From Gemmatimonadota bacterium (GTDB taxonomy: Bacteria; 4572-55; J002), in contig RFFQ01000013.1 in the NCBI GenBank assembly GCA_003697105.1, forward strand, positions 1-64,000: 64,000 nt of DNA, written 5' to 3'. Shown piece after piece: positions 33,408-45,709 of this stretch (its first letter is position 1; the number at the start of each line of letters is the position of its first letter). Under the pieces are notes generated by a model. That model ran no database searches. It was not told the origin of the DNA and saw only the letters and a program-made list of their open reading frames with translations. Both the position numbers and the translations under genes were made by a program.

Positions 33408-33519
33408 CGGCACACTCCCCTAGAAAACCCCTATGTCTATCTCTTACACTTATTATACACCAGATACAATTACCCCATTTTCTATTTAGTGGACATATTC
33501 CCTTTTGGAGGTTTCCAAA

Positions 33520-35148
33520 ATGCTTATTTATATACCGAGGGTTCTGTTTTCGGCAATTCTGATGGCGACTACCCTATTATGTTTAGGAAGTTGCGATGAT
33601 AGCGACAATATGCCCGAACCCCTTTCGATTCAATTCCTTTCTCCGGCAAATGATGCCGTTCTTCGGGAAGATAGGATTGAAGTTCAGATTAACGCTTCAG
33701 CCAACCATGCAGATGCCCGTATCGATAAGGTCGAACTATTTGCGGGAAATCAGCAGGTTGCAACCACAACGGAAGTCCAGACCAATCCTGCCATCGTCAC
33801 CCTGGAGTGGGACGTCTCCAATTTGCCCAACGCCACTTACGAATTAGAAGCAAAAGTCTATGATAACCGCGGTAACACCAAAAGCAGTCAAATCCAGGTT
33901 CAACTCCACCGACAATTAAGAGTTCAAATTACCTCACCGCAAGATGGGCAGATTATCAACAGCAACCAGATACCGGTAACGGTTACGATTAAAACGATTG
34001 CCGCTGATATTGTTGAAGCCATCTTAACGGTTGATGGTGCGGCGGTGGTCACAAAAACCCAAGCACCTTGGGAGTTTACTTGGGATACGGCAGGCTACCC
34101 CCTCAATCAGGAGTACCATCTTCAGGTGACAATTGAAGATGCCGATGGAAACACAGCCCAATCGAATGTCGTGACCATCTGCGTGGGGTGTGAAATCCCA
34201 CCCTTGAGTTTGGCAATCATTTCCCCTCAGGCGGGTGAACAAATTGAAGCCAATCAGATTTCCGTTTCTGGAACGGTAACCAGTAACATTGGGCGAGCCA
34301 TTGAGCGGGTCACTTTGATAGTGAATGATAGCCCGGTGGCAGAGCGCAACCAAGCGCCGTGGGAATTCATCTGGGATACCACCAGCTATCCCGATAGTAC
34401 CACCTGTACCCTTTTCATCGAAGCTGAAGATGAGCAGGGCAATGTGGCACAATCCGAACCGGTGACCGTCTGTGTGCGCTGTGTGGAGCAATTTAGCCGG
34501 CAGCGGGTGGTTGTTCAGGAACAATTTACCGGCGCATGGTGCCAAAACTGTCTGCTTTATGCCGATCCGGCGGCAGATGCGCTGGCAGAAGAATTTGGAC
34601 CCACCCAATTGCTCTCGGTACATTACCATATCCGGGCAGGTTTGTTTGATGATTTTGAAATCGCGGAAGGTGTGGCACGGCTGAACTACTATGCCTTGAA
34701 CAACAGCCTACCCCATGCGGTCTTTGATGGCAGTGTCGTTATTACCGGCGGAGACCCCAGTACAGAAGACGTTTACCGGCAACAAATCAATACCCAATTG
34801 GCAGATGAGCCACCCGTCGGTATTCTGTTGACCGGCACGTTGGGCGCCGGAGAAATAACGGCAAAGATCAAAGCATTTGAACAACTCGCCAATCCCGGTC
34901 TAACCGTTCAATTTGTGATTACGGAGAGTGACTTAACTCACCCCAGCCCCCCGATTCATTTTAACTATGTTGTGCGAGATATGTTGCCCCCCGCCTCGAT
35001 CACCTTACCCAATGAAGGTGATCAAACGGAAGTAAGTCGTTCTTTCGTGTTAGATGACAGTTGGAATATGGATGAAATTCAACTCGTGGTGTTTGTTCAA
35101 GATGATAACACCAAAGTTATTTTACAGGGTCAAGCTATATGGGAATAA
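33520..35148 (+). CDS. Lipoprotein with three Big-type Ig domains and a C-terminal Omp28-like thioredoxin-fold domain (CQNC)
   Basis: GGAGG RBS, lipobox LGS-C; three 'I.SP..G...WDT' Ig repeats; 'EQFTGAWCQNC', 'NYVVRDML', 'WNMDEIQLVVFVQD'. Confidence 0.85.
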   Translation: MLIYIPRVLFSAILMATTLLCLGSCDDSDNMPEPLSIQFLSPANDAVLREDRIEVQINASANHADARIDKVELFAGNQQVATTTEVQTNPAIVTLEWDVSNLPNATYELEAKVYDNRGNTKSSQIQVQLHRQLRVQITSPQDGQIINSNQIPVTVTIKTIAADIVEAILTVDGAAVVTKTQAPWEFTWDTAGYPLNQEYHLQVTIEDADGNTAQSNVVTICVGCEIPPLSLAIISPQAGEQIEANQISVSGTVTSNIGRAIERVTLIVNDSPVAERNQAPWEFIWDTTSYPDSTTCTLFIEAEDEQGNVAQSEPVTVCVRCVEQFSRQRVVVQEQFTGAWCQNCLLYADPAADALAEEFGPTQLLSVHYHIRAGLFDDFEIAEGVARLNYYALNNSLPHAVFDGSVVITGGDPSTEDVYRQQINTQLADEPPVGILLTGTLGAGEITAKIKAFEQLANPGLTVQFVITESDLTHPSPPIHFNYVVRDMLPPASITLPNEGDQTEVSRSFVLDDSWNMDEIQLVVFVQDDNTKVILQGQAIWE

Positions 35149-35178
35149 TCTCAACTTTTATCGATGGAGGAAGTACTG

Positions 35179-35721
35179 ATGAAATCAATTTTTAAGTTAA
35201 GTGCCTGTATTGTGTTGGCAATAACATTTGTTGCCGGAACGGCGATGAGTGCCGAAACGCGCGAATACCAAAAACTACCGGCATTTAGTACCAAAGATTT
35301 AAGTGGTAAACTCGTCAGTTTTGATGATGTCAAAGGTGAAAAAGCCACTTACATCACGTTTTGGGCAACGTGGTGCAAACCGTGCATGGCAGAATTGCCT
35401 CACTTGCAAGAGCTGTACGAGAAATATCAAGAGCAAGGATTGCAAATCATTGGTATGAATGAAGATACCGCCAAGAAAACCGCCAAGGTCAAAAAAGCCG
35501 TTAATCAGAAAAAGCTATCATACCCAATTTTGTTAGACCCAACAGCAGAAGTGGGTAAAAAGTTAGGGATGCCTACAGAGTTACCCTACGGCTTGCTCAT
35601 CGACGGTAACGGAAATATTATTGAAAAAACCATCGGATTTCAAAAAGGCGATGAGGATGCGTTAGAAAAGAAGATCGTTAAACTATTGGGGCTTGAAACC
35701 AGTACGGAGGAATCAAATTGA
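35179..35721 (+). CDS. Exported TlpA/ResA-family thiol-disulfide reductase
   Basis: GGAGG RBS, signal peptide, 'FWATWCKPCMAELP', 'LPYGLLID'. Confidence 0.93.
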   Translation: MKSIFKLSACIVLAITFVAGTAMSAETREYQKLPAFSTKDLSGKLVSFDDVKGEKATYITFWATWCKPCMAELPHLQELYEKYQEQGLQIIGMNEDTAKKTAKVKKAVNQKKLSYPILLDPTAEVGKKLGMPTELPYGLLIDGNGNIIEKTIGFQKGDEDALEKKIVKLLGLETSTEESN

Positions 35722-37364
35722 AACCGCAAATAGCAATCAGTCTCGTCGCGATGGGATTGATGTTGTTGGTTAAGATTCCCACCGCCGGAAGTATTGATCT
35801 TAATTATTCATTTTACAATAATGTGCAATATTCGTTATTTGAAGCGTCGGAGCGCGACAGTCTTGTAGAACGCGCGGAAGTCAATCTTCAAATAGGGTTG
35901 TTGCGTACCGGCATGTTGCTGGAAGCGCGTCAACCTTTACCTAAAGTAGGAGATGCGGAACAAGGCTTTGGTCCCGTCAACGTGCGAAAACTGTTTTTTG
36001 AATTAGAAAAAGATGGGTTTTCGCTCCGTGCCGGAGATTTTCCGGTCTTATTTGGACGTGGATTATCGATCAACCTATTTCGAGATGATGCATTGCGTCA
36101 GGATACCGAACCGGAAGGCATCAAACTTGGCTACCGGAATGATTATGTTCAGGCAACGGCATTCAGCGGGTATGTGGAAAAATTTGTCGGACCCGTTTCC
36201 ACAAATGATGTCAGTTATGAAGTAGATGATACCCGGCAACATCTCTTTCGAGGTGCGGCATCTACGTTTCGTCCATTTACCAATACGGATTCTCCCTTAC
36301 AACCTTTAGAACTGGGGGTGCAATATGTCCGGTTTCGCTCCATCGAAGCCTATCCGTTCCCCCAAGAAACGCGGCGTTACGAAGACCGCCGTACAATGAC
36401 GGGAGGGAGTCTCTTCTATAGCGGTGATTTTTTTGATATTTACGGCGAATACGTCACCGGTAAGCGCATTGAAAACGAACTGTATCCCGATGGAAAAGCA
36501 AAGTTCACCATTGCCGAATACGATACCATCCAAGGAATATACGGCGTTATCAACGCCTTTTGGGGTGATTTTTCGCTTTTTGGCGAATTTAAGGATTATC
36601 AAGGGCTGGGCTTTTTTGATGCCTCCGGTAATTACTCCAAACCGATTGGACAGCTACAATCTCCTGCAAAACCGTACAACAATCCACCGCCCGTTGTCAC
36701 AGAGCATACCAGCCGGTTACTCGGTCGGGATATGTACCAGCCGATCATCCTCAATAACGAACGCGGGTATCGTGTGGAATTAGAGTGGACACCCACCTAT
36801 TCCACCCAGATTTTAGTCGATTATACCCGCGCAGAAAGTCGTGAAGGAGACCTCTATTTTCAGGAATATTACCTTGAATTTGAGCATTCTATTTGGGATG
36901 ATAACCTTTCGTTCATGGGCATGATCGAGCAAGGTGACGTGGGGGAAAAGGCAGACCGCACAGGCGGTTGGCTGAAAACCACGTACCAATTAAATGATAA
37001 ACAATCGATTGCCCTCACGACAGAATACATGGATGGTACGGTCAAAAACGTGGCAGATGAAGTCGGTCAATATTATGTTTTCAGTTTTTCGCAGTCCAAA
37101 GATACACATGAGAACGACTCGTTTTGGCGGGCGCTTCTGAAACGGTCGTGGACCCTCTCCGCCGCGTATGAGCTTAGTAGTGAAGCCGATCAGGATGGGA
37201 AAGATAATTGGTTTTCCTTAGCGATGGATTATAAAGTTTCAGATAATCATCTAGTACGGTTATTCTACGGTGCACGTCGAGCGGGTCTGAACTGCAACGG
37301 AGCAATTTGTGTCCCCGAACCGGCATTTGAAGGCTTCGAATGTCAATTAATTAGCGTGTTTTAA
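35718..37364 (+). CDS. Outer-membrane beta-barrel, DUF6029-like, with C-terminal CxxxxC
   Basis: TTGA overlap with TlpA; signal peptide; 'AGDFPVLFGRGL'; amphipathic beta strands; 'YGARRAGLNCNGAICVPEPAFEGF'; terminal Phe. Confidence 0.75.
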   Translation: MKPQIAISLVAMGLMLLVKIPTAGSIDLNYSFYNNVQYSLFEASERDSLVERAEVNLQIGLLRTGMLLEARQPLPKVGDAEQGFGPVNVRKLFFELEKDGFSLRAGDFPVLFGRGLSINLFRDDALRQDTEPEGIKLGYRNDYVQATAFSGYVEKFVGPVSTNDVSYEVDDTRQHLFRGAASTFRPFTNTDSPLQPLELGVQYVRFRSIEAYPFPQETRRYEDRRTMTGGSLFYSGDFFDIYGEYVTGKRIENELYPDGKAKFTIAEYDTIQGIYGVINAFWGDFSLFGEFKDYQGLGFFDASGNYSKPIGQLQSPAKPYNNPPPVVTEHTSRLLGRDMYQPIILNNERGYRVELEWTPTYSTQILVDYTRAESREGDLYFQEYYLEFEHSIWDDNLSFMGMIEQGDVGEKADRTGGWLKTTYQLNDKQSIALTTEYMDGTVKNVADEVGQYYVFSFSQSKDTHENDSFWRALLKRSWTLSAAYELSSEADQDGKDNWFSLAMDYKVSDNHLVRLFYGARRAGLNCNGAICVPEPAFEGFECQLISVF

Positions 37365-37378
37365 TCAGGGAGGTACTA

Positions 37379-39394
37379 ATGAAAAAAAGGATATTATTAA
37401 CGGTTTTGATATTCGGAATAGCAGTTTCCGGATGGGCGGATATTCCAAAACTCGGCGTTATTGAGCAGTTCACCACAGTGGGAAATGAGTTGTGCGAAGA
37501 GTCCAATCTGTACGTTCAACAATTGAAGGAACATTACGGGGTCAAAAACGCCGTGGTGATTCAATATCACGTGGGAGATAATGACCCATTTTACCAAGCA
37601 AACCACACGGATAACGACGCCCGGGCAGAATATTACGGCGTTGAATATCTGCCAATGGTTGCTACCTCAGGCAATAGCATGGTGCAAGCCACCGATCCAT
37701 ACGATATAAACGTCAAAATGGATAAAGTGTTAGAAACAGATACCCCACTTTATATGAGTGTATTCCATGAAATTGAGGGATCAACGCTCTCGGTAGAAGG
37801 CTCGGTAGTTGCCGCCGGCGAGATAGATGGCACATATAATTTACAAATCGCCGTCATCGAAAAAGAAGTGACAGAAGGAGGCATGACATATTATAATGTG
37901 ATGCGTAAACTTTTACCAGATGGCGCGGGTACTGATTTTTACATCGCCTCTGGGGGAGACGACGCTTATTATGAGTTCTCGCAATCGCTGCAAATCGACG
38001 CCGGCTGGGATACCGATCAATTAGAAGTGATCGTTTTTGTCCAAGACCCAGCAACGCAAGGTATTTTGCAAGCGGTCACCACAGAACTGGTTGAGGCAAC
38101 ACCCTCCCCACACCATATCCGGCTGGTGTCCGAACAACGTGTCCGAATTTTACCCGTGAATACTTTTTTGGAAAATCACTATATGCGCTTCATCAATATG
38201 ATGGACCAAGATGACCAGTTTGACTTTTTGCTGGAAACAGATATGCCGGAAGGTTGGGTGGCGTCTTTTTGTGTGGGACCCATTTGCTTACCGGATTCCG
38301 CACGTATTGCGTTTGAGGCGGGACAATCCGAGGGACAACCCGAAGATGATGGACGACACATGTATGTAACCATCACACCGATGAACACACCCGGCGTCGG
38401 CGATGTCATCTTTACGGCACGCTCCGTAACCTACCCTTCGGTACAGCAATCACTTCATTTCCGGGTCATCACCGATGGTATTGATGTGCTAATCGTCGAT
38501 GCGGATGGTGGTCTGGATAGTGAACAGGGCATTGCCAGCGCTTTGGAGCGCGCAGAAGTTACCTATGGCATCTGGAAAGCATCCACACCCATCACCGGTG
38601 CCGAAATGGCGAATTTCCCGGTGGTCATCTGGAATACCGGTCGGGCATTACCCACATTGCTGGAATCTGACCGAGCCGCCATCCAAGAGTATATGGATAA
38701 CCTCGGCTCGATCCTGATCAGTGGGCAAAATATTGGTTGGGATTTAACCAATGCCGCCAGCCGTAATCGCGATCCGGAATTCTATAGTGGTGTGCTTCAT
38801 GCCAATTTCATCAATGATAATGCATCCAGCATGGCAGTAACGGGTGTTGGGTTTGCGGAAGGTCTGGCATTTAATCTGGTCGATCAAACCTCGCCGGATG
38901 TGGTGGAACCCGTCGATGATAACACCTTTGACCTATACCAATATGGCGAAAGTGAAGTTGCCGGATTGTACACGGGAGCGATGGTCTATCTAGGGTTCGA
39001 TCCGGCACAAATTGATAGTGACGATCAGCGTGACTGGACCATCGCACGTATTTTGAATTACTTTAATTTGGCGGTTGGTGCGGGACCGGTGACCACAGGC
39101 ATCACCCAAACGCCACCAGCCGTAACTCTCCACCAAAATGTGCCGAATCCATTCAATCCCACAACACGTATTCGGTACGAATTACCGCAAAGTAGCACCG
39201 TGAAGCTTACCATTTATGATGTCACCGGACGGTTGGTGCGCACGTTGGTCAACCAACCCCAAGAAAGTGGCATTTATGATGTCCAATGGAATGGTCATGA
39301 TGATGCCGGTCACGTCGTGAATAGCGGCATCTATGTTTATCAATTGGAAACTGAAACGGCGACGCAGACTCAAAAAATGATGTTGTTGAAATAA
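37379..39394 (+). CDS. Secreted Omp28-like protein, paralog 1 (NxxC, first Cys absent) with FlgD-Ig/T9SS-type CTD
   Basis: GGAGG RBS, signal peptide; 'EQFTTVGNELC', 'NDPFY', 'NVMRKLLP', 'VFVQD'; internal CVGPIC; 'NVPNPFNP'. Confidence 0.85.
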   Translation: MKKRILLTVLIFGIAVSGWADIPKLGVIEQFTTVGNELCEESNLYVQQLKEHYGVKNAVVIQYHVGDNDPFYQANHTDNDARAEYYGVEYLPMVATSGNSMVQATDPYDINVKMDKVLETDTPLYMSVFHEIEGSTLSVEGSVVAAGEIDGTYNLQIAVIEKEVTEGGMTYYNVMRKLLPDGAGTDFYIASGGDDAYYEFSQSLQIDAGWDTDQLEVIVFVQDPATQGILQAVTTELVEATPSPHHIRLVSEQRVRILPVNTFLENHYMRFINMMDQDDQFDFLLETDMPEGWVASFCVGPICLPDSARIAFEAGQSEGQPEDDGRHMYVTITPMNTPGVGDVIFTARSVTYPSVQQSLHFRVITDGIDVLIVDADGGLDSEQGIASALERAEVTYGIWKASTPITGAEMANFPVVIWNTGRALPTLLESDRAAIQEYMDNLGSILISGQNIGWDLTNAASRNRDPEFYSGVLHANFINDNASSMAVTGVGFAEGLAFNLVDQTSPDVVEPVDDNTFDLYQYGESEVAGLYTGAMVYLGFDPAQIDSDDQRDWTIARILNYFNLAVGAGPVTTGITQTPPAVTLHQNVPNPFNPTTRIRYELPQSSTVKLTIYDVTGRLVRTLVNQPQESGIYDVQWNGHDDAGHVVNSGIYVYQLETETATQTQKMMLLK

Positions 39395-39400
39395 ATCCCC

Positions 39401-39435
39401 AGCCCGGTACGGGTATCCGTATCGGGCTTATTTTT
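39401..39435 (+). terminator. Terminator-like hairpin between paralogs 1 and 2
   Basis: AGCCCGGTACGG-GTAT-CCGTATCGGGCT followed by TATTTTT. Confidence 0.7.
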
Positions 39436-39466
39436 ATCCACCTTCGGTTGGAAGGAGATTGTACCA

Positions 39467-41443
39467 ATGCGTAAATTGTTTTTAGTATTGTTAGCTCTGG
39501 CTTTTTTGATGCCGGTACGCGGTATGGCGGTAGAACGCACCGTACTGGCAGAATTACAAACAGCAACGTGGTGAGTGTACTGTCCTTGGGCTGAAGCAGC
39601 CATCGATCAGTTGATCGAGGAATACGGTACCGATAACGTCGTTTATATTGCCTATCACTATACTGACGAACTGGAAATCGCCGAAGGAAGTGCACGCTGG
39701 GCATCCTATTATGGCAATGAAGGTACGCCTAATATGTACTTTGACGGGCTCCAAAATGTGTTAGGCGGTTGGGAAGGCTGTTATGACGCTTATCTTGCTG
39801 AATTGCAATCCCGCTGGGCAAACAGTAGCCCGATTCGCCTCGAACTCATCGGGGGAATTGTGGATACGGAAGGATATATCTCGGCAAATGTTACATTAGA
39901 AGGGGACATTCCCGCCGGTATGACCGTCCGCTTTGCCGTTATAGAAAATGATATTATCCTAAATCGCCACTATAATGGGGTATTACGAGACTTACTGGCA
40001 GAAGAAACGCTCAGCATCAGCCAGCAAGGCGAAACGGTTACGTTGGATCGCACCTTCCCCGTAGAAGAGGGTTGGAATTACGAAAATATGGGCGTGGTTG
40101 TATTTGTCCAAAATGATAACACCCACGAAGTCCTTCAAGCCGCTTATTTTGACGCTTCAGATTCTGAATATCTGGTGAGCTTTACGTCCAGCGGCACCGT
40201 TGCGATTTCAGAAGCAGACCAACCCTATGATTTTTATGCCTTGGTGGAGAATGTCGGTCCGAATGACGATACTTACACCATTACAATGAATACCGATGAA
40301 TTACCCGAAGGGTGGAACGCCACGTTTACCATCGGCGAAGACGTGTACGAATCCGAAGCCGAAATTGATCTGGCGTCAGGGGAACAGGTACTTCTCACTA
40401 TCAATTATAATCCGAATAACGTACCCGGTCAGGGCGATGTTTATTTAGAATTAGTCTCCCACGCCGAACCGCGCCTGCAAAAATCAATGAGTTTTCGGCT
40501 GATCTCCGATGTGGAAGTCCTGATTGTGGATGACGCCCTCAATACCGATGCCACCCTGTATGAAACGGTGCTAACCGAAGATGAAACGATATGGGGCACG
40601 TGGGAAGTCCTCCGGGGAGGCAACATTGATAGTGATGAAATTGCGAATATCCCCACCGTGTTATGGATAACCGGTAGCGACGATCGTGAAACCATCACCG
40701 AAGACGATCAAATGGAATTGATCACCTATCTGGAAAACGGCGGATCATTGCTCCTAACCGGTCACAATATCGGGGGCGATATTGCCGCAACTGAATTTTA
40801 CACCGATTTTCTGGGCGCCCGTTATCGTTTCAATAACTTCGGACAAACCACCCTGAACGGGATCGAAGGCAACCCGATTGGCGATGGGTTAGTCCTCGAA
40901 ATTGAACACGATTCCCCAGATGTGGTCATGATGCAGGACGATGTGGATGGTCTGGAACCGGTCTTCCAATATGGAGCAGTGCCCAACCTCTACGCGGCAC
41001 TCGCACATGCGGCAGATACGTACCGGACGGTCTATTTTTCTGTGAGTCTGGATCAAGTATCCGATCCAGACAGCCGGGAAAGTGCCCTATTGCGCTCCTT
41101 GCGCTGGTTGAGAGGCGAATCCACGAACATCGACCCGGTGGAGCAAACATCAATTGCCACCGTCTCACATTACCAACTGGCACAGAATGTACCGAACCCA
41201 TTTAACCCCCGAACCACAATTGCCTATGCGTTGCCGGAACAAAGTCGTGTCAGTATCCATATTTACAACTCTTCCGGTCAATTGATACGAACTCTGGTCA
41301 ATAAGACGCAGAATGCCGGCACATATCACGTCCAGTGGGACGGTACAGATAGTGAACATCACGAAGTCGCCAGTGGGATTTATCTGTATAAACTCGTGAC
41401 AGACAAAGAAACACACATTAAATCAATGGTATTACTCCGGTAA
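39467..41443 (+). CDS. Putative secreted selenoprotein, Omp28-like paralog 2 (UxxC; TGA 39572-39574 = residue 36), 658 aa, FlgD-Ig/T9SS-type CTD
   Basis: GAAGGAG RBS, ATG 39467, MRKLFLVLLALAFLMPVRGMA-VERTVLAELQTATW-TGA-VYCPW in frame with ORF 39575..41443; aligns to EQFTGAWCQNC. Confidence 0.88.
39589..39618 (+). promoter_or_regulatory. Candidate bacterial SECIS element for TGA 39572
   Basis: GGCTG-AAG-CAGCC (39589-39601), loop about 19-22 nt after TGA; adjacent hairpin TCGATC-AGTT-GATCGA (39603-39618). Confidence 0.55.
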
Positions 41444-41465
41444 CCAAGCGGGCATAATCGGGTGA

Positions 41466-41497
41466 AACCCTTAGCATCTACAAAGGTGCTAAGGGTT
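41466..41497. terminator. Intergenic stem-loop between paralogs 2 and 3
   Basis: AACCCTTAGCATCT-ACAA-AGGTGCTAAGGGTT; no U tract. Confidence 0.6.
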
Positions 41498-41549
41498 CAA
41501 TCCCAACAGAACACTCCATACCAAAAGCCCATTCATGAGGAGATTACCG

Positions 41550-43550
41550 ATGAGGCAAATTTTATGGACAAGTGTGGTTTGGTCATTTATTGCCGTCTCC
41601 GCATTTGCAACGGAACGGGTGGTCTTAATGGAAATGTTTACCAGCACCACCTGACCGGTTTGTCCCACTGCGGAGCAGTGGCTTGATAACTGGTATCCTA
41701 GCAATTACGATGACGTGGCAATTATCCGTTACCACATGAATTGGCCCGCCCCCGGGAATGACCCCTTTTATCACGCCAACCCGCTAGAAAACAACGCCCG
41801 GCGAGGGGTTTACGGCGTCAACGGCATACCGGACATGTTTGTGGATGGCGTTTTAAATCCAGGCATACCCTACAGTACCGCCGTCAACCAACGGTTGGAG
41901 ATACCTAGCCCGTTGGAAATCAATGTGGATGGAACATTTGATTGGACTACCAATGAAGGCACCACTACGGTGGAAATCACAGCAACAGAAGACTTCTCTT
42001 ATAATTCATTGCGGATGCAATACGTGATTATTGAAAATAATGTAGCATACACCGGTCCAAACGGACATACACCCCACCATCAGGTGATGCACGATATGGT
42101 ACCAACAGCTTCGGGCGAAAGTTTTGAGATTACAAATGGAGAAACCCTCCTATTCAACCGGAATTTCGTCATTGATGAAAGCTGGGATGCGAATGAATGT
42201 GAGATTGTTGTTTTTGTGCAGGATAATACGAGCCGTGAAGTCTTTCAAGCAATGCATATGTCGCTTGATGAACTGTTTCCTATCCGCCTCCGCTTTGAAA
42301 CAAGCGGCAATACGGCACTGGGTGCGTCCGATGGTGAGTATCCGTTTTACGCCCTCATCGAAAATCAAGACAACCAAGCAGATGTATTTGATGTTGAATT
42401 GACAACCTCTGCACCCGAGGCGTGGTCGATCAATTTTACGCTGGAAGGAGTCACCTACGAGGATGGGGCAGAACTCCCCCTCGATGCCGGTGAAGAAGTG
42501 CCCTTAACCGTGAATATCAGCCCCAATAGCACCGCCGGTGAAGGTTTTGCCACGGTCACCCTCACCTCCCAATCCGAACCACGGGTGGTAAAATCTCTGA
42601 CCTTCCAACTCATTACCAATGATGTAGATGTGCTCGTGATTGACGATGCCAATGATGGTAATATTGAACCGTATCGCGCCGCACTGGAAACAACCGATTT
42701 TGTCTTTGGCGCCTGGGATGTCGCGGTGGGAGGCGCTCTAAATCCAGAGGATCTAGAACAGATTACGACCCTCATCTGGTTTACCGGCGGTGAAGAAGAG
42801 ACCGCTTTAGAACCCGATGAAATCGAGATGTTGACCGGTTACCTCGATAACGGCGGGCAACTGATGCTCTCGGGGCGAAATTTGGGCGTTGCGATTGGCA
42901 CAACAGATTTTTATACTGAATATCTCGGTGCCCATTTCCGGTTCAACAACTTCAGCACCTATGAGGTGAATGGGATTGAAGGCGACCCCATCGGGGATGG
43001 TATCTCCTTCACATTTGAGCAGGATTCCCCAGATGTCGTCCTCCCCCGTCCCGGAGTGGATGGCGTGTCACCGGTTTTTCAATATGGCGATATTCCGCTG
43101 TATGCGGCACTACGGCACGAGACCGAAACCTACCGCACGGTGTACTATTCGATCAGCTTGGAAGGCGTCAATGAAGCCGATGCCCTCGCCCAGCTCATCG
43201 AAAATTCGGTTCTCTGGTTACAAGGGGAAGAAACAGCAATTGAGCCACAAAAAAGTGATGTGGCACGTGTAACTGCCTATCAATTATTTCAAAATGTACC
43301 GAATCCATTCAATCCTCAAACTCAAATTGAATATGCGGTGCCGGTACCTGCAACAGTTCAGTTGAATATCTATTCCGTGACAGGACAATTCATCAAAACG
43401 CTTGTACATCGTCCGCAAAGTGCCGGACACTATCGTGTGATATGGGATGGTACCAACCAGTTTGGAGCTGCCGTAGCCAGCGGAATTTATCTGTATGAAC
43501 TATCGGCTGGGGAACACCGGCTCACCCGTCAGATGGTTCTACTCCATTAA
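41550..43550 (+). CDS. Putative secreted selenoprotein, Omp28-like paralog 3 (UxxC; TGA 41652-41654 = residue 35), 666 aa, FlgD-Ig/T9SS-type CTD
   Basis: GAGGAG RBS, ATG 41550, MRQILWTSVVWSFIAVSAFA-TERVVLMEMFTSTT-TGA-PVCPTAEQWLDNWYP in frame with ORF 41715..43550; next gene reads EMFTSTTCPPC. Confidence 0.92.
41665..41681 (+). promoter_or_regulatory. Candidate bacterial SECIS element for TGA 41652
   Basis: Perfect 7-bp stem CCACTGC-GGA-GCAGTGG starting 11 nt after TGA, with G at the start of the loop. Confidence 0.7.
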
Positions 43551-43621: not shown

Positions 43622-45709
43622 ATGCGTAAAACACTATTTATGGTTTTAATATTAATACTAATGGTTACGCTTTTCGTACCCAATGTACACGCGGAACGAA
43701 TCGTACTGTTGGAGATGTTTACCAGTACCACCTGCCCACCGTGTGTATCCGCCAATGCGGCGATGAATACGTGGTATCCTGACAACGATGATATTTCGGC
43801 ATTGATTCGCTACCATGTTTGGTGGCCCTCACCGGGCAATGACCCGTTCTATCTGGCAAACACGGCAGAAGCCCAAGCCCGCACCAATTATTACGGGGTA
43901 AATGGGGTGCCCGACATCTTTGCAGATGGACTTTTGGACGCCAGTTTCCCTCCCATTTCTCAGGTTGCTCAACGTCGCGCGGTAGACCCGCCAGTGGATA
44001 TTATGGTTGCCGGCAGCTATGACGTTGATAATAACGTTGGTGAGGCAACTATTACTGTCTCCGCGCTGGAAGACTTCAATTACAATGACCTCCGCTTTTT
44101 CTTCGTTATTACGGAAGATAATTGTGTGTACACTGGTACAAACGGGGATCCGGTACACCATCAGGTGATGCGCGACATGGTGCCAAATGCCAACGGCGAA
44201 AGTTTTGATATTGCCGATGGTGAATCGGTCGTGTTTACCCGATCCTTCTCGCTATCACCCGTACCGGGTGTAAATGAGACCGGAATTCCTGAAAATACAA
44301 ACGTCGTGTGCTGGGTTCAAGATGTAGCAACAAATTCCAGAGAAGTACATCAGGCCGCTTGGGTACCCCTAATGGAACTCGTCCCAGCCGCCGCTATTGA
44401 AGGATATGTCACCGACTGTGCCAATGAGGAAGGCTTGGATGTGACGAATGTCTATGTGGAAGGCACGGGATATGCCACCATCACCGATGAAAATGGATTT
44501 TACCATCTCAATGCCGAACCGGGCACGCACACGGTCGTTTTTGAGCGGTTCGGGTATGTCACACACACCCAAGAAGTCACCTTAGCCGAAGATGATCTAC
44601 TGCCCGTAGATGTCTGTCTGAATGCGTTCGGGCAATCCACGTTAACCGGAACGGTTTCACAGCGGGAAAATGGTAATCCAATTCCAAATGCACCCATTGA
44701 ACTGCTCGGTGTACCAATTAATTCCACCGTAACGGATGAAAACGGGGTCTATACGTTCAGTGTTCCGGGTGGTTACACCTACGAGGTTTCGGTCTATGCA
44801 GATGATCGCGAACCGGTTGTAGAAAGCGTTACCGTACCTGAAAATGAAGTGGTAGAGCACAACTTCCCGATGCGCTTTGTTCAAAGTTTTGAAGCAACCG
44901 ATGGTGGCTTTGATCCCAACCGCCTGTGGGAGTGGGGCGATGCCAACGCAGGTGGTGGCGCTGAAACGGCCTATTTGGGGATGAAGTACTGGTCAACCAA
45001 TATCGACGGTGCATATCCCAGTAATCAACGTGCCGATCTGGTGACACCCGAATATAGCCTGACCCAAGCCAACGCCGCCGATTTATTCTATGCCCACTGG
45101 CTCGATACCAACGAGGGATGGGACGGCTATAATCTTTCCATCAGCACTAACGGCGGCGATGACTGGGTCCGGATCGAACCGGAAGGAGGCTATCCCGGCA
45201 GTGTGATCGGATTATCGGGACAACCTGGCTTCTCCAGTGATAGCAACGTATGGGAGATGGTACATTATGATCTGACCGACTATCTCGGCGAAGTGGTTCA
45301 ATTCCGATTCCGTTTCGGTAGTACCAACAACAACCGGAATTACTTAGGGGTTTGCATTGACTATTTTGATCTCCAAACGGATGTGGAAACGGCGGTAGAT
45401 GAGCCACAAATGACGGGTATTGCCATTCCACAAGCCCTGACACTGAGCCAAAATGTCCCCAACCCGTTCAACCCCAATACGAAAATCCATTTTGCCTTGC
45501 CCCAAACCCAACATATTAATGTCGCCATTTATGCCCTGAATGGACAGTTGGTAAAAACATTGCAAAATGGTGTTCTTTCGGCAGGGGATTACACCGTTAC
45601 TTGGAATGGTACCAATGAGCAAGGCGTACCGGTAGCCAGCGGAACATACATCTACCGCTTGGAAAGCAACGCTGAAATCCTCAGCAAAACCATGGTCTTG
45701 TTGAAGTAA
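43622..45709 (+). CDS. Secreted Omp28-like paralog 4 (CPPC) with two carboxypeptidase-regulatory-like domains, a jelly-roll domain and FlgD-Ig/T9SS-type CTD
   Basis: AAGGAGG RBS, signal peptide; 'EMFTSTTCPPC', 'WPSPGNDPFY', 'HQVMRDM'; two 'TDENG.Y' repeats; 'NVPNPFNP'. Confidence 0.9.
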   Translation: MRKTLFMVLILILMVTLFVPNVHAERIVLLEMFTSTTCPPCVSANAAMNTWYPDNDDISALIRYHVWWPSPGNDPFYLANTAEAQARTNYYGVNGVPDIFADGLLDASFPPISQVAQRRAVDPPVDIMVAGSYDVDNNVGEATITVSALEDFNYNDLRFFFVITEDNCVYTGTNGDPVHHQVMRDMVPNANGESFDIADGESVVFTRSFSLSPVPGVNETGIPENTNVVCWVQDVATNSREVHQAAWVPLMELVPAAAIEGYVTDCANEEGLDVTNVYVEGTGYATITDENGFYHLNAEPGTHTVVFERFGYVTHTQEVTLAEDDLLPVDVCLNAFGQSTLTGTVSQRENGNPIPNAPIELLGVPINSTVTDENGVYTFSVPGGYTYEVSVYADDREPVVESVTVPENEVVEHNFPMRFVQSFEATDGGFDPNRLWEWGDANAGGGAETAYLGMKYWSTNIDGAYPSNQRADLVTPEYSLTQANAADLFYAHWLDTNEGWDGYNLSISTNGGDDWVRIEPEGGYPGSVIGLSGQPGFSSDSNVWEMVHYDLTDYLGEVVQFRFRFGSTNNNRNYLGVCIDYFDLQTDVETAVDEPQMTGIAIPQALTLSQNVPNPFNPNTKIHFALPQTQHINVAIYALNGQLVKTLQNGVLSAGDYTVTWNGTNEQGVPVASGTYIYRLESNAEILSKTMVLLK

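Follow-up and report, generated by a model that had tools for sequence, protein, structure and literature searches.

Does the TGA at positions 39572-39574 of a Gemmatimonadota contig end a gene, or does it lie inside one and encode selenocysteine (Sec, U)? The question concerns the gene at 39467..41443 on the forward strand of a 64,000-nt stretch of DNA (Gemmatimonadota bacterium; GenBank assembly GCA_003697105.1, contig RFFQ01000013.1, positions 1 to 64,000), hereafter called the window. The gene is best understood as coding for a secreted redox protein with Sec as the catalytic residue, encoded by a TGA that gene callers have taken as a stop. We hold this reading to be very probable (roughly 0.9, a figure that applies to the selenoprotein claim itself). 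It draws on the reading frame, the pairing of Sec with cysteine (Cys) among homologs, the Sec machinery of the genome, the protein fold, the type IX sorting domain and a conserved gene cassette, all of them computed here.

A TGA codon in the column of a catalytic cysteine

Read directly, the sequence proceeds from the Shine-Dalgarno-like GGAAGGAG over a spacer of 9 nt to ATG 39467-39469, then through the leader MRKLFLVLLALAFLMPVRGMA and the segment VERTVLAELQTATW to the TGA, which is codon 36, and on into VYCPWAEAAIDQL, just as the original prediction had described it, with VYCPW leading into a 622-aa open reading frame (ORF). This TGA is the single in-frame one across 658 codons, and the frame ends at TAA 41441-41443. 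The leader ends VRGMA/VE with no lipobox cysteine, and a hydrophobic N-terminal leader is likewise present in paralogs and homologs. Translation table 11 yields only the 622-aa piece, 39575..41443, starting at GTG 39575; the public protein (P0009) is this same piece, with 100% identity over 95% of the query, and because it begins at GTG 39575 it is without signal peptide and active site. The closest relatives, at 54% amino-acid identity, are all paralogs, and none outside this genome exceeds 38%. The genome itself is very isolated: just two other species of the same class were among the genomes compared, and its remaining relatives share only the domain.

The evidence that carries the assignment is the recurrence of TGA in a single alignment column. 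When the N-terminal domain was searched by tblastn, taking in the paralogs and matches from 60 other genomes, 6 genes were found to have TGA at column 36, 9 to have Cys and 1 to have asparagine (Asn), with the second motif Cys invariant in this alignment; C39 and the proline P88 are invariant in 16 sequences. The pairing of TGA with Cys was the comparison that the original prediction had proposed as its test, and the alignment with EQFTGAW-C-QNC of the lipoprotein at 33505-35148, on which it had relied, is reproduced by the same search, while the alignment it drew with ATW-C-KPC of TlpA holds as a likeness in the CxxC motif shared by proteins of the thioredoxin fold. It had also counted two genes with TGA at the same catalytic position. 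The shared column is confirmed and the count was too low, as a search of the whole genome with the NCBIfam model NF045500 ('Omp28-related selenoprotein', a family name taken from the model library alone) gives six matches, four of which have exactly one TGA each, at that column. These four are two genes of the window and one each on contigs C24 and C185; they are diverged, at 50-54% identity or less, and the codon is TGA, never TAA or TAG.

The pattern extends well beyond this genome, as judged from tallies of printed tables and from loci chosen by searches. In the phylum of genome G037, 56 of 151 genomes match NF045500 at E <= 1e-8, exactly one TGA is present in 49 of the 90 matches listed, and among 12 loci fetched from that phylum 11 of 13 domains carry TGA as the first residue of U-x-x-C, the other 2 having Cys. 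Outside that phylum sample, at least 10 further genomes of those sampled have genes with TGA in this column. A wider set of 401 genomes from about 270 families contains 31 genomes matching at E <= 1e-12, and among the 44 matches listed from it one TGA is present in 15, of which 4 come from the present genome. Two loci from another phylum (L063, G037:C14; L065, G063:C5) have tandem arrays of four Omp28-like genes, three with TGA and one with Cys.

In a tree of 45 distinct N-terminal domains, whose rows are whatever the searches returned and hence not an unbiased sample, 25 have U, 19 have C and 1 has another residue at the column. The 39467 gene clusters with the C24 and C185 paralogs, all U, with support of 95, and this clade suggests an expansion of the Sec form inside the lineage. 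The gene at 41550 (U) is sister to the gene at 43622 (C) with support of 94, and at least 4 switches between U and C are required by well-supported branches. Nonsense mutations or errors arising independently cannot account for such a pattern, and the recurrent TGA/Cys column lends strong support to programmed UGA recoding, as first proposed.

The genome is equipped for this recoding. It has a tRNA-Sec with anticodon TCA on contig C25 (C25:11702-11799; found by ARAGORN; 63 bits with the Rfam model, against a gathering score of 47), and its SelB, SelA and SelD pass their curated cutoffs with 383.8, 585 and 355.9 bits. The Sec machinery on which the original prediction depended is thus present in full. 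The selD gene (contig C12:941-1864, reverse strand) itself contains an in-frame TGA, at the canonical site G-U-A-S-K. Global reassignment of TGA was considered and rejected: the codon serves as an ordinary stop, closing 10 of the 43 long ORFs of the window and, genome-wide, 504 of the 1829 ORFs that reach at least 300 aa.

Fold of the protein and its proposed export and function

The N-terminal domain has the features of a thioredoxin-fold oxidoreductase: U-x-x-C comes after strand 1, at the start of helix 1, and strand 3 is preceded by a conserved proline. The AlphaFold2 (AF2) model of residues 1-240 has a mean predicted local distance difference test score (pLDDT) of 91.6 and places residues 33-38 between a strand (26-32) and a helix (39-53). 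Foldseek ranks HBP35 first (5y1a; E 1.8e-13, query template-modelling score, TMq, 0.75) and 2axo second, with the Omp28 domain 2r2c at rank 8. A profile search of the Protein Data Bank (PDB) with 16 N-terminal domains finds 2axo (9.3e-09), 5y1a (4.6e-08) and thioredoxins, and the profile alignment sets W-C/U-x-Y-C-P on the CxxC of thioredoxins (4fyu, 1fo5), HBP35 and Atu2684, and P88 on the 'iP' of thioredoxin. The family profiles are less generous. PF11551 (Omp28) is passed narrowly, with 36.5 bits against a gathering score (GA) of 34.9, and what counts against the assignment is that the best NCBIfam match of the domain, NF045500 (E 3.1e-18; residues 24-228 on model positions 39-266), reaches 66.3 bits against a cutoff of 200 (62.2 bits in the genome search), with NF033782 at 51 bits against 150.

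NF045500 is an equivalog_domain model of 377 positions, and at 66.3 bits against 200 the 39467 gene lies outside the family as its curators define it; the search of 552 genomes gave no match over the cutoff. Counted by offset, U36 corresponds to roughly model position 51; matches starting at 50 include the TGA and those starting at 52-53 do not. A relative near the cutoff, in genome G522 (179.3 bits over positions 73-376), has TSTT-U-GPC in its upstream frame, at the same column as TATW-U-VYC of the 39467 gene and TSTT-U-PVC of the 41550 gene. It ends in a PNPFNP-type sorting tail, as the 39467 gene has a type IX tail, and differs in having aspartate-rich repeats where the 39467 gene has a ThuA-like module in mid-protein. 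HBP35 of Porphyromonas gingivalis shares the fold over about 250 columns, and its WCGYCP aligns with W-U-V-Y-C-P; it differs in having Cys rather than Sec, in its 344 residues and in being without the ThuA-like module. To the Omp28 family proper the match is above the gathering score, with 2r2c matching the beta-sandwich half, whereas the outer membrane lipoproteins of NF033782 differ from the 39467 product, which has no lipobox Cys and has a type IX tail. The best sequence-profile match in the PDB, DUF1223/Atu2684 (2axo), has GCASCP on the motif and is distinct in being a single domain with Cys and no secretion tail; its family model PF06764 is not reached by the 39467 gene, and a neighbour (P0003) comes near it, with 30.6 against 30.7.

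Selenoproteins in which Sec takes the place of the leading Cys in the CxxC of a thioredoxin fold are the commonest and classic bacterial kind. With the thioredoxin-fold U-x-x-C selenoproteins and with TlpA/ResA the 39467 product shares Sec at the site of the attacking Cys and the conserved P88. It differs in being a large multi-domain type IX cargo as compared with small cytoplasmic or periplasmic redoxins. We found no literature linking Omp28, HBP35-like or type IX cargo proteins to selenocysteine, and the main text of the BSepDB paper (PMC13326102), in the part available and as distinct from the family table in its Table S2, makes no mention of Omp28 or the outer membrane. We rate the 39467 gene as a new addition to an already known kind of selenoprotein, placed in a subfamily that is distant and built differently; the existing NCBIfam family of Omp28-related selenoproteins lowers the novelty.

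Behind the N-terminal domain, a linker conserved in homologs matches no Pfam family at E <= 0.01 save for a sub-threshold V-set match. It leads to the ThuA-like module (residues 346-560; AF2 pLDDT 86.1), for which Foldseek finds 4jqs (E 2.2e-08, TMq 0.61), non-catalytic domains of GH42 enzymes and the N-domain of IFT52; the corresponding module of paralog P0002 resembles parts of many type IX cargo proteins (atlas leads, scores <= 0.85). The C-terminal sorting domain scores 35.6 bits with TIGR04183 (cutoff 23) and 47.6 bits with PF13860 (GA 27). With TIGR04183 above its cutoff, a leader and type IX secretion system (T9SS) machinery in the genome, namely PorU (649.9 bits against 420) and SprA (508.6 bits against 200), the protein has what is expected of a type IX cargo. 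On the other side stands a PorV-like match that remains under its cutoff (124 against 250). About 50 further frames across the genome match the PorU model solely in its C-terminal tail, and to judge from these profiles type IX secretion in the organism seems to export a large set of cargo.

The following course of events is proposed, in which the insertion of selenium, the cellular location and the direction of electron flow are what we infer. UGA codon 36 would be decoded as Sec by SelB with tRNA-Sec, under the direction of mRNA structure downstream, that is hairpin 1 (described below) and possibly hairpin 2 with it. The signal peptide would take the protein through the general secretory translocon over the inner membrane, and the C-terminal sorting domain would pass it to the type IX system, to reach its final site on or outside the cell surface. 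There, Sec36 at the N-terminus of helix 1 of the Omp28/HBP35-type thioredoxin fold would act as the attacking residue of U-x-x-C, and the protein would be a selenol/thiol-disulfide oxidoreductase working via a Sec36-Cys39 selenenylsulfide, with reducing equivalents likely supplied by the co-encoded periplasmic TlpA-like protein. A role as surface reductase is an even prospect in our judgement.

A protein of this kind might instead be a genuine selenoprotein whose main task at the surface is the capture of a ligand such as hemin or a metal, as in HBP35, and not disulfide reduction. HBP35 is the best structural match, and the available portions of the literature describe it as a type IX secretion cargo (PMC3120885) that binds hemin and whose deletion mutant has a growth defect under hemin depletion (PMC2907840). 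The same portion of the latter report states that thioredoxin activity of HBP35 in vitro requires both motif cysteines (PMC2907840), which speaks for redox chemistry, and identity between the two proteins is just 18%; moreover, the adjoining TlpA-like reductase suggests redox cycling. Ligand capture as the main role is accordingly an unlikely alternative to disulfide reduction, if one to be kept in view.

RNA structure after the UGA and other readings of the codon

Folding of the RNA after the UGA reveals two hairpins, GGCUG-AAG-CAGCC (hairpin 1, +18 to +30) and UCGAUC-AGUU-GAUCGA (hairpin 2, +32 to +47), of which the first is the candidate selenocysteine insertion sequence (SECIS). Among the three closest paralogs, 2 of the 5 pairs of hairpin 1 are altered on both sides, and 6 of 6 pairs of hairpin 2 are kept, one of them being seen as U-A, C-G and G-C; taken together, 3 of 11 pairs show two-sided changes (18-30, 21-27 and 36-43). 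In these three sequences only, 97% of cells are paired; sliding the partner lowers this to 21-54%. In selD, the hairpin that follows the UGA (CCAGG-GGU-CCUGG, +19 to +31) has the size and spacing of hairpin 1, and in the 41550 gene the TGA is followed by a 7-bp hairpin, CCACUGC-GGA-GCAGUGG, and table 11 again shows only a 611-aa ORF, from GTG 41715. Compared with synonymous recodings, the 45 nt after the UGA fold more stably in this gene (p = 0.014) and likewise in each of its three TGA paralogs (p = 0.018, 0.002 and 0.016).

A number of results weigh against reading these hairpins as a signal for Sec. Two Cys paralogs of the genome also beat their recodings (p = 0.042 and 0.004), and for this reason the evidence from RNA structure is not specific to Sec. 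Across all genes tested, p < 0.05 is obtained in 7 of 17 Sec genes and 2 of 12 Cys or other genes; the folding difference between Sec and Cys genes is not significant (Mann-Whitney p = 0.22), nor is it with mononucleotide shuffles (p = 0.069 and 0.18). The z-scores from folding of single sequences are weak (-1.3 and -1.7), no Rfam SECIS family was found in 39300-42000 at E <= 10, where matches were at chance level only, and the AAG loop of hairpin 1 differs from the GGU-type loop of selD. The structured regions of the two Cys paralogs lie at 43622-43720 and 34480-34580 of the window; their stability may be left over from a SECIS that served before Sec gave way to Cys, or it may be a bias of the null model. 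Bacterial SECIS elements are described, in the part of the source available, as heterogeneous, with the standard model missing some known genes (PMC12013277). The candidate SECIS, conserved in this subfamily, is plausible and not proven by folding.

These results bear on the possibility that the UGA is read through without Sec, by a near-cognate tRNA for tryptophan or Cys or by a suppressor tRNA. The inserted residue cannot be told from sequence alone, and the hairpins are no textbook SECIS, with similar structure present in Cys paralogs. Against this, the genome has the full Sec pathway and uses UGA at the canonical Sec site of selD, and tRNA-Sec alone among the 47 RNA genes listed by ARAGORN carries the anticodon TCA, which leaves no other suppressor. 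Additionally, the position is that of the nucleophilic Cys of CxxC, a classic site of Sec/Cys exchange, and the near-cutoff relative of the NF045500 family has TGA at the same column. Decoding as Sec is by far the better account, and readthrough with another residue is highly improbable.

An equally slim chance attaches to the publicly annotated start, GTG 39575, being the true one, with the 35 upstream codons a separate short ORF or non-coding. In favour of it one may cite that the table-11 ORF begins at a GTG right after the TGA, in the form of the public protein. The product so obtained, however, would have a type IX sorting domain and no signal peptide, and it would be without strand beta-1 and the first motif residue of the thioredoxin fold. 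The upstream residues 22-35 are conserved among three paralogs (8 of 14 positions invariant, as compared with 83 of 204 for residues 22-225 in the same three) and align with homologs that read through Cys at the column. GTG 39575 has only GGTG as Shine-Dalgarno-like letters, 1-4 nt away, whereas ATG 39467 has GGAAGGAG at its proper distance, and the same layout is seen in all four TGA paralogs. The start at ATG 39467 given in the original prediction is thus supported, and nothing points to the relaxed selection beyond the TGA that would have told against it: the downstream domains are conserved and fold with confidence. Cutting the public protein at the UGA is an annotation error by which the export signal and the catalytic residue are lost. 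The same cut affects at least 3 more genes in this genome and, by the tally, probably dozens in other phyla. Corrected models would add four selenoproteins to the genome of a very sparsely sampled lineage, and they suggest selenoproteins that act outside the cell, exported by type IX secretion.

There remains the notion of a pseudogene. Independently built contigs from two runs are identical over 2301 nt at a depth of 23-25; as these contigs are probably the source of this DNA, their agreement rules out an assembly slip but does not amount to independent biology. In a run from a second study, coverage is confined to 39300-39512 and two further short stretches, and does not extend to the TGA. 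A lone in-frame stop does resemble a recent nonsense mutation, but a mutation or a sequencing or assembly error at codon 36 is the least credible of the readings, given TGA (never TAA or TAG) at the same column in four diverged paralogs and other genomes, more than 600 intact codons past the TGA in confidently folding domains, and concordant contigs. The runs that contain the whole stretch are labelled hot springs metagenome, and none of the sequencing runs listed for it is of RNA.

Gene neighbourhood and a recurrent cassette

The 39467 gene is the fifth of seven same-strand genes (Table 1). The last four are tandem paralogs, all of which combine a signal peptide with an Omp28-like domain at the N-terminus and a type IX tail, and the motif column reads N, U, U, C in their order.

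Table 1. Features of the 39467 gene, its neighbours and its paralogs on other contigs (window coordinates unless a contig is given)
Feature	Position	Strand	Basis
Ig-repeat protein with Cys-type Omp28-like domain, W-C-Q-N-C	33505-35148	+	family profiles
TlpA/ResA-like periplasmic thiol-disulfide oxidoreductase, W-C-K-P-C	35164-35721	+	family profiles
DUF6029 barrel-like protein	35718-37364	+	family profiles
Tandem paralog, G-N-E-L-C, Asn in place of Sec or Cys	37379..39394	+	alignment
Terminator-like hairpin, 12 pairs (8 G-C), then TATTTTTATC	39401..39428	+	consensus scan only
Shine-Dalgarno-like GGAAGGAG	39450..39457	+	direct reading of sequence
Full predicted selenoprotein gene, 658 codons, UGA codon 36 as Sec	39467..41443	+	translation with TGA=U, one open frame
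Putative signal peptide, residues 1-21, MRKLFLVLLALAFLMPVRGMA	39467..39529	+	translation, assigned by eye
Thioredoxin-fold and beta-sandwich domain, Omp28/HBP35-like, U36-x-x-C39, conserved P88	39530..40156	+	Pfam, NF045500, AF2, Foldseek
Predicted UGA Sec codon, first position of U-V-Y-C	39572..39574	+	Sec/Cys column alignment
Hairpin 1, candidate SECIS	39589..39601	+	folding
Hairpin 2, second conserved stem, possibly part of a SECIS	39603..39618	+	folding
Linker, residues ~236-345, conserved in homologs	40172..40501	+	alignment across homologs
ThuA-like / class I glutamine-amidotransferase-like alpha/beta module	40502..41146	+	AF2, Foldseek
Type IX C-terminal sorting domain, FlgD_ig type, type A	41192..41440	+	TIGR04183, PF13860
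Tandem predicted selenoprotein paralog, TSTT-U-PVC, TGA 41652-41654 (codon 35)	41550..43550	+	alignment, folding
Tandem paralog with Cys, TSTT-C-PPC, different middle domains	43622..45709	+	alignment
TGA paralogs outside the window, W-U-A-T-C / W-U-T-Y-C	C24:12737-13378; C185:271-879	-; +	translation

One observation tells against treating the array as a unit. A strong terminator-like hairpin stands just upstream of the 39467 gene, and no promoter was identified between the hairpin and the gene; the four paralogs therefore may not share one transcript.

Parts of the arrangement recur elsewhere. A genome of another phylum (L071, G157:C2:1045000-1064000) has a TlpA-like gene, a DUF6029 gene and two tandem Omp28/T9SS genes on one strand, both of the latter with TGA (W-U-V-Y-C and G-U-T-Y-C), and a genome of the same class (L074, G002:C51:1-12000) has the order Omp28-like (Cys), TlpA-like, DUF6029. 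By tblastn at 1e-4, DUF6029 occurs in 2 of 18 neighbourhoods and a TlpA-like gene beside the Omp28 gene in 3, so that the cassette link is recurrent and not universal. Kept across phyla, the association of TlpA, DUF6029 and Omp28 gives a testable clue to what DUF6029 and the Omp28/HBP35 fold do.

A speculative extension of the surface-reductase proposal, and one that we consider doubtful, is that the cassette might form a dedicated trans-envelope redox relay, in which the TlpA-like reductase, the DUF6029 protein as an outer-membrane barrel and the type IX U-x-x-C proteins would act in succession, with Sec taking the last step at the surface. If so, it would represent an extracellular selenoenzyme system in a deep-branching hot-spring lineage, and the tandem U/U/C/N array with its Sec/Cys switches would reflect tuning to the selenium supply or to external substrates. 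The Asn paralog at 37379-39394 keeps the second Cys and all other domains, and it may be a redox-dead or single-Cys variant.

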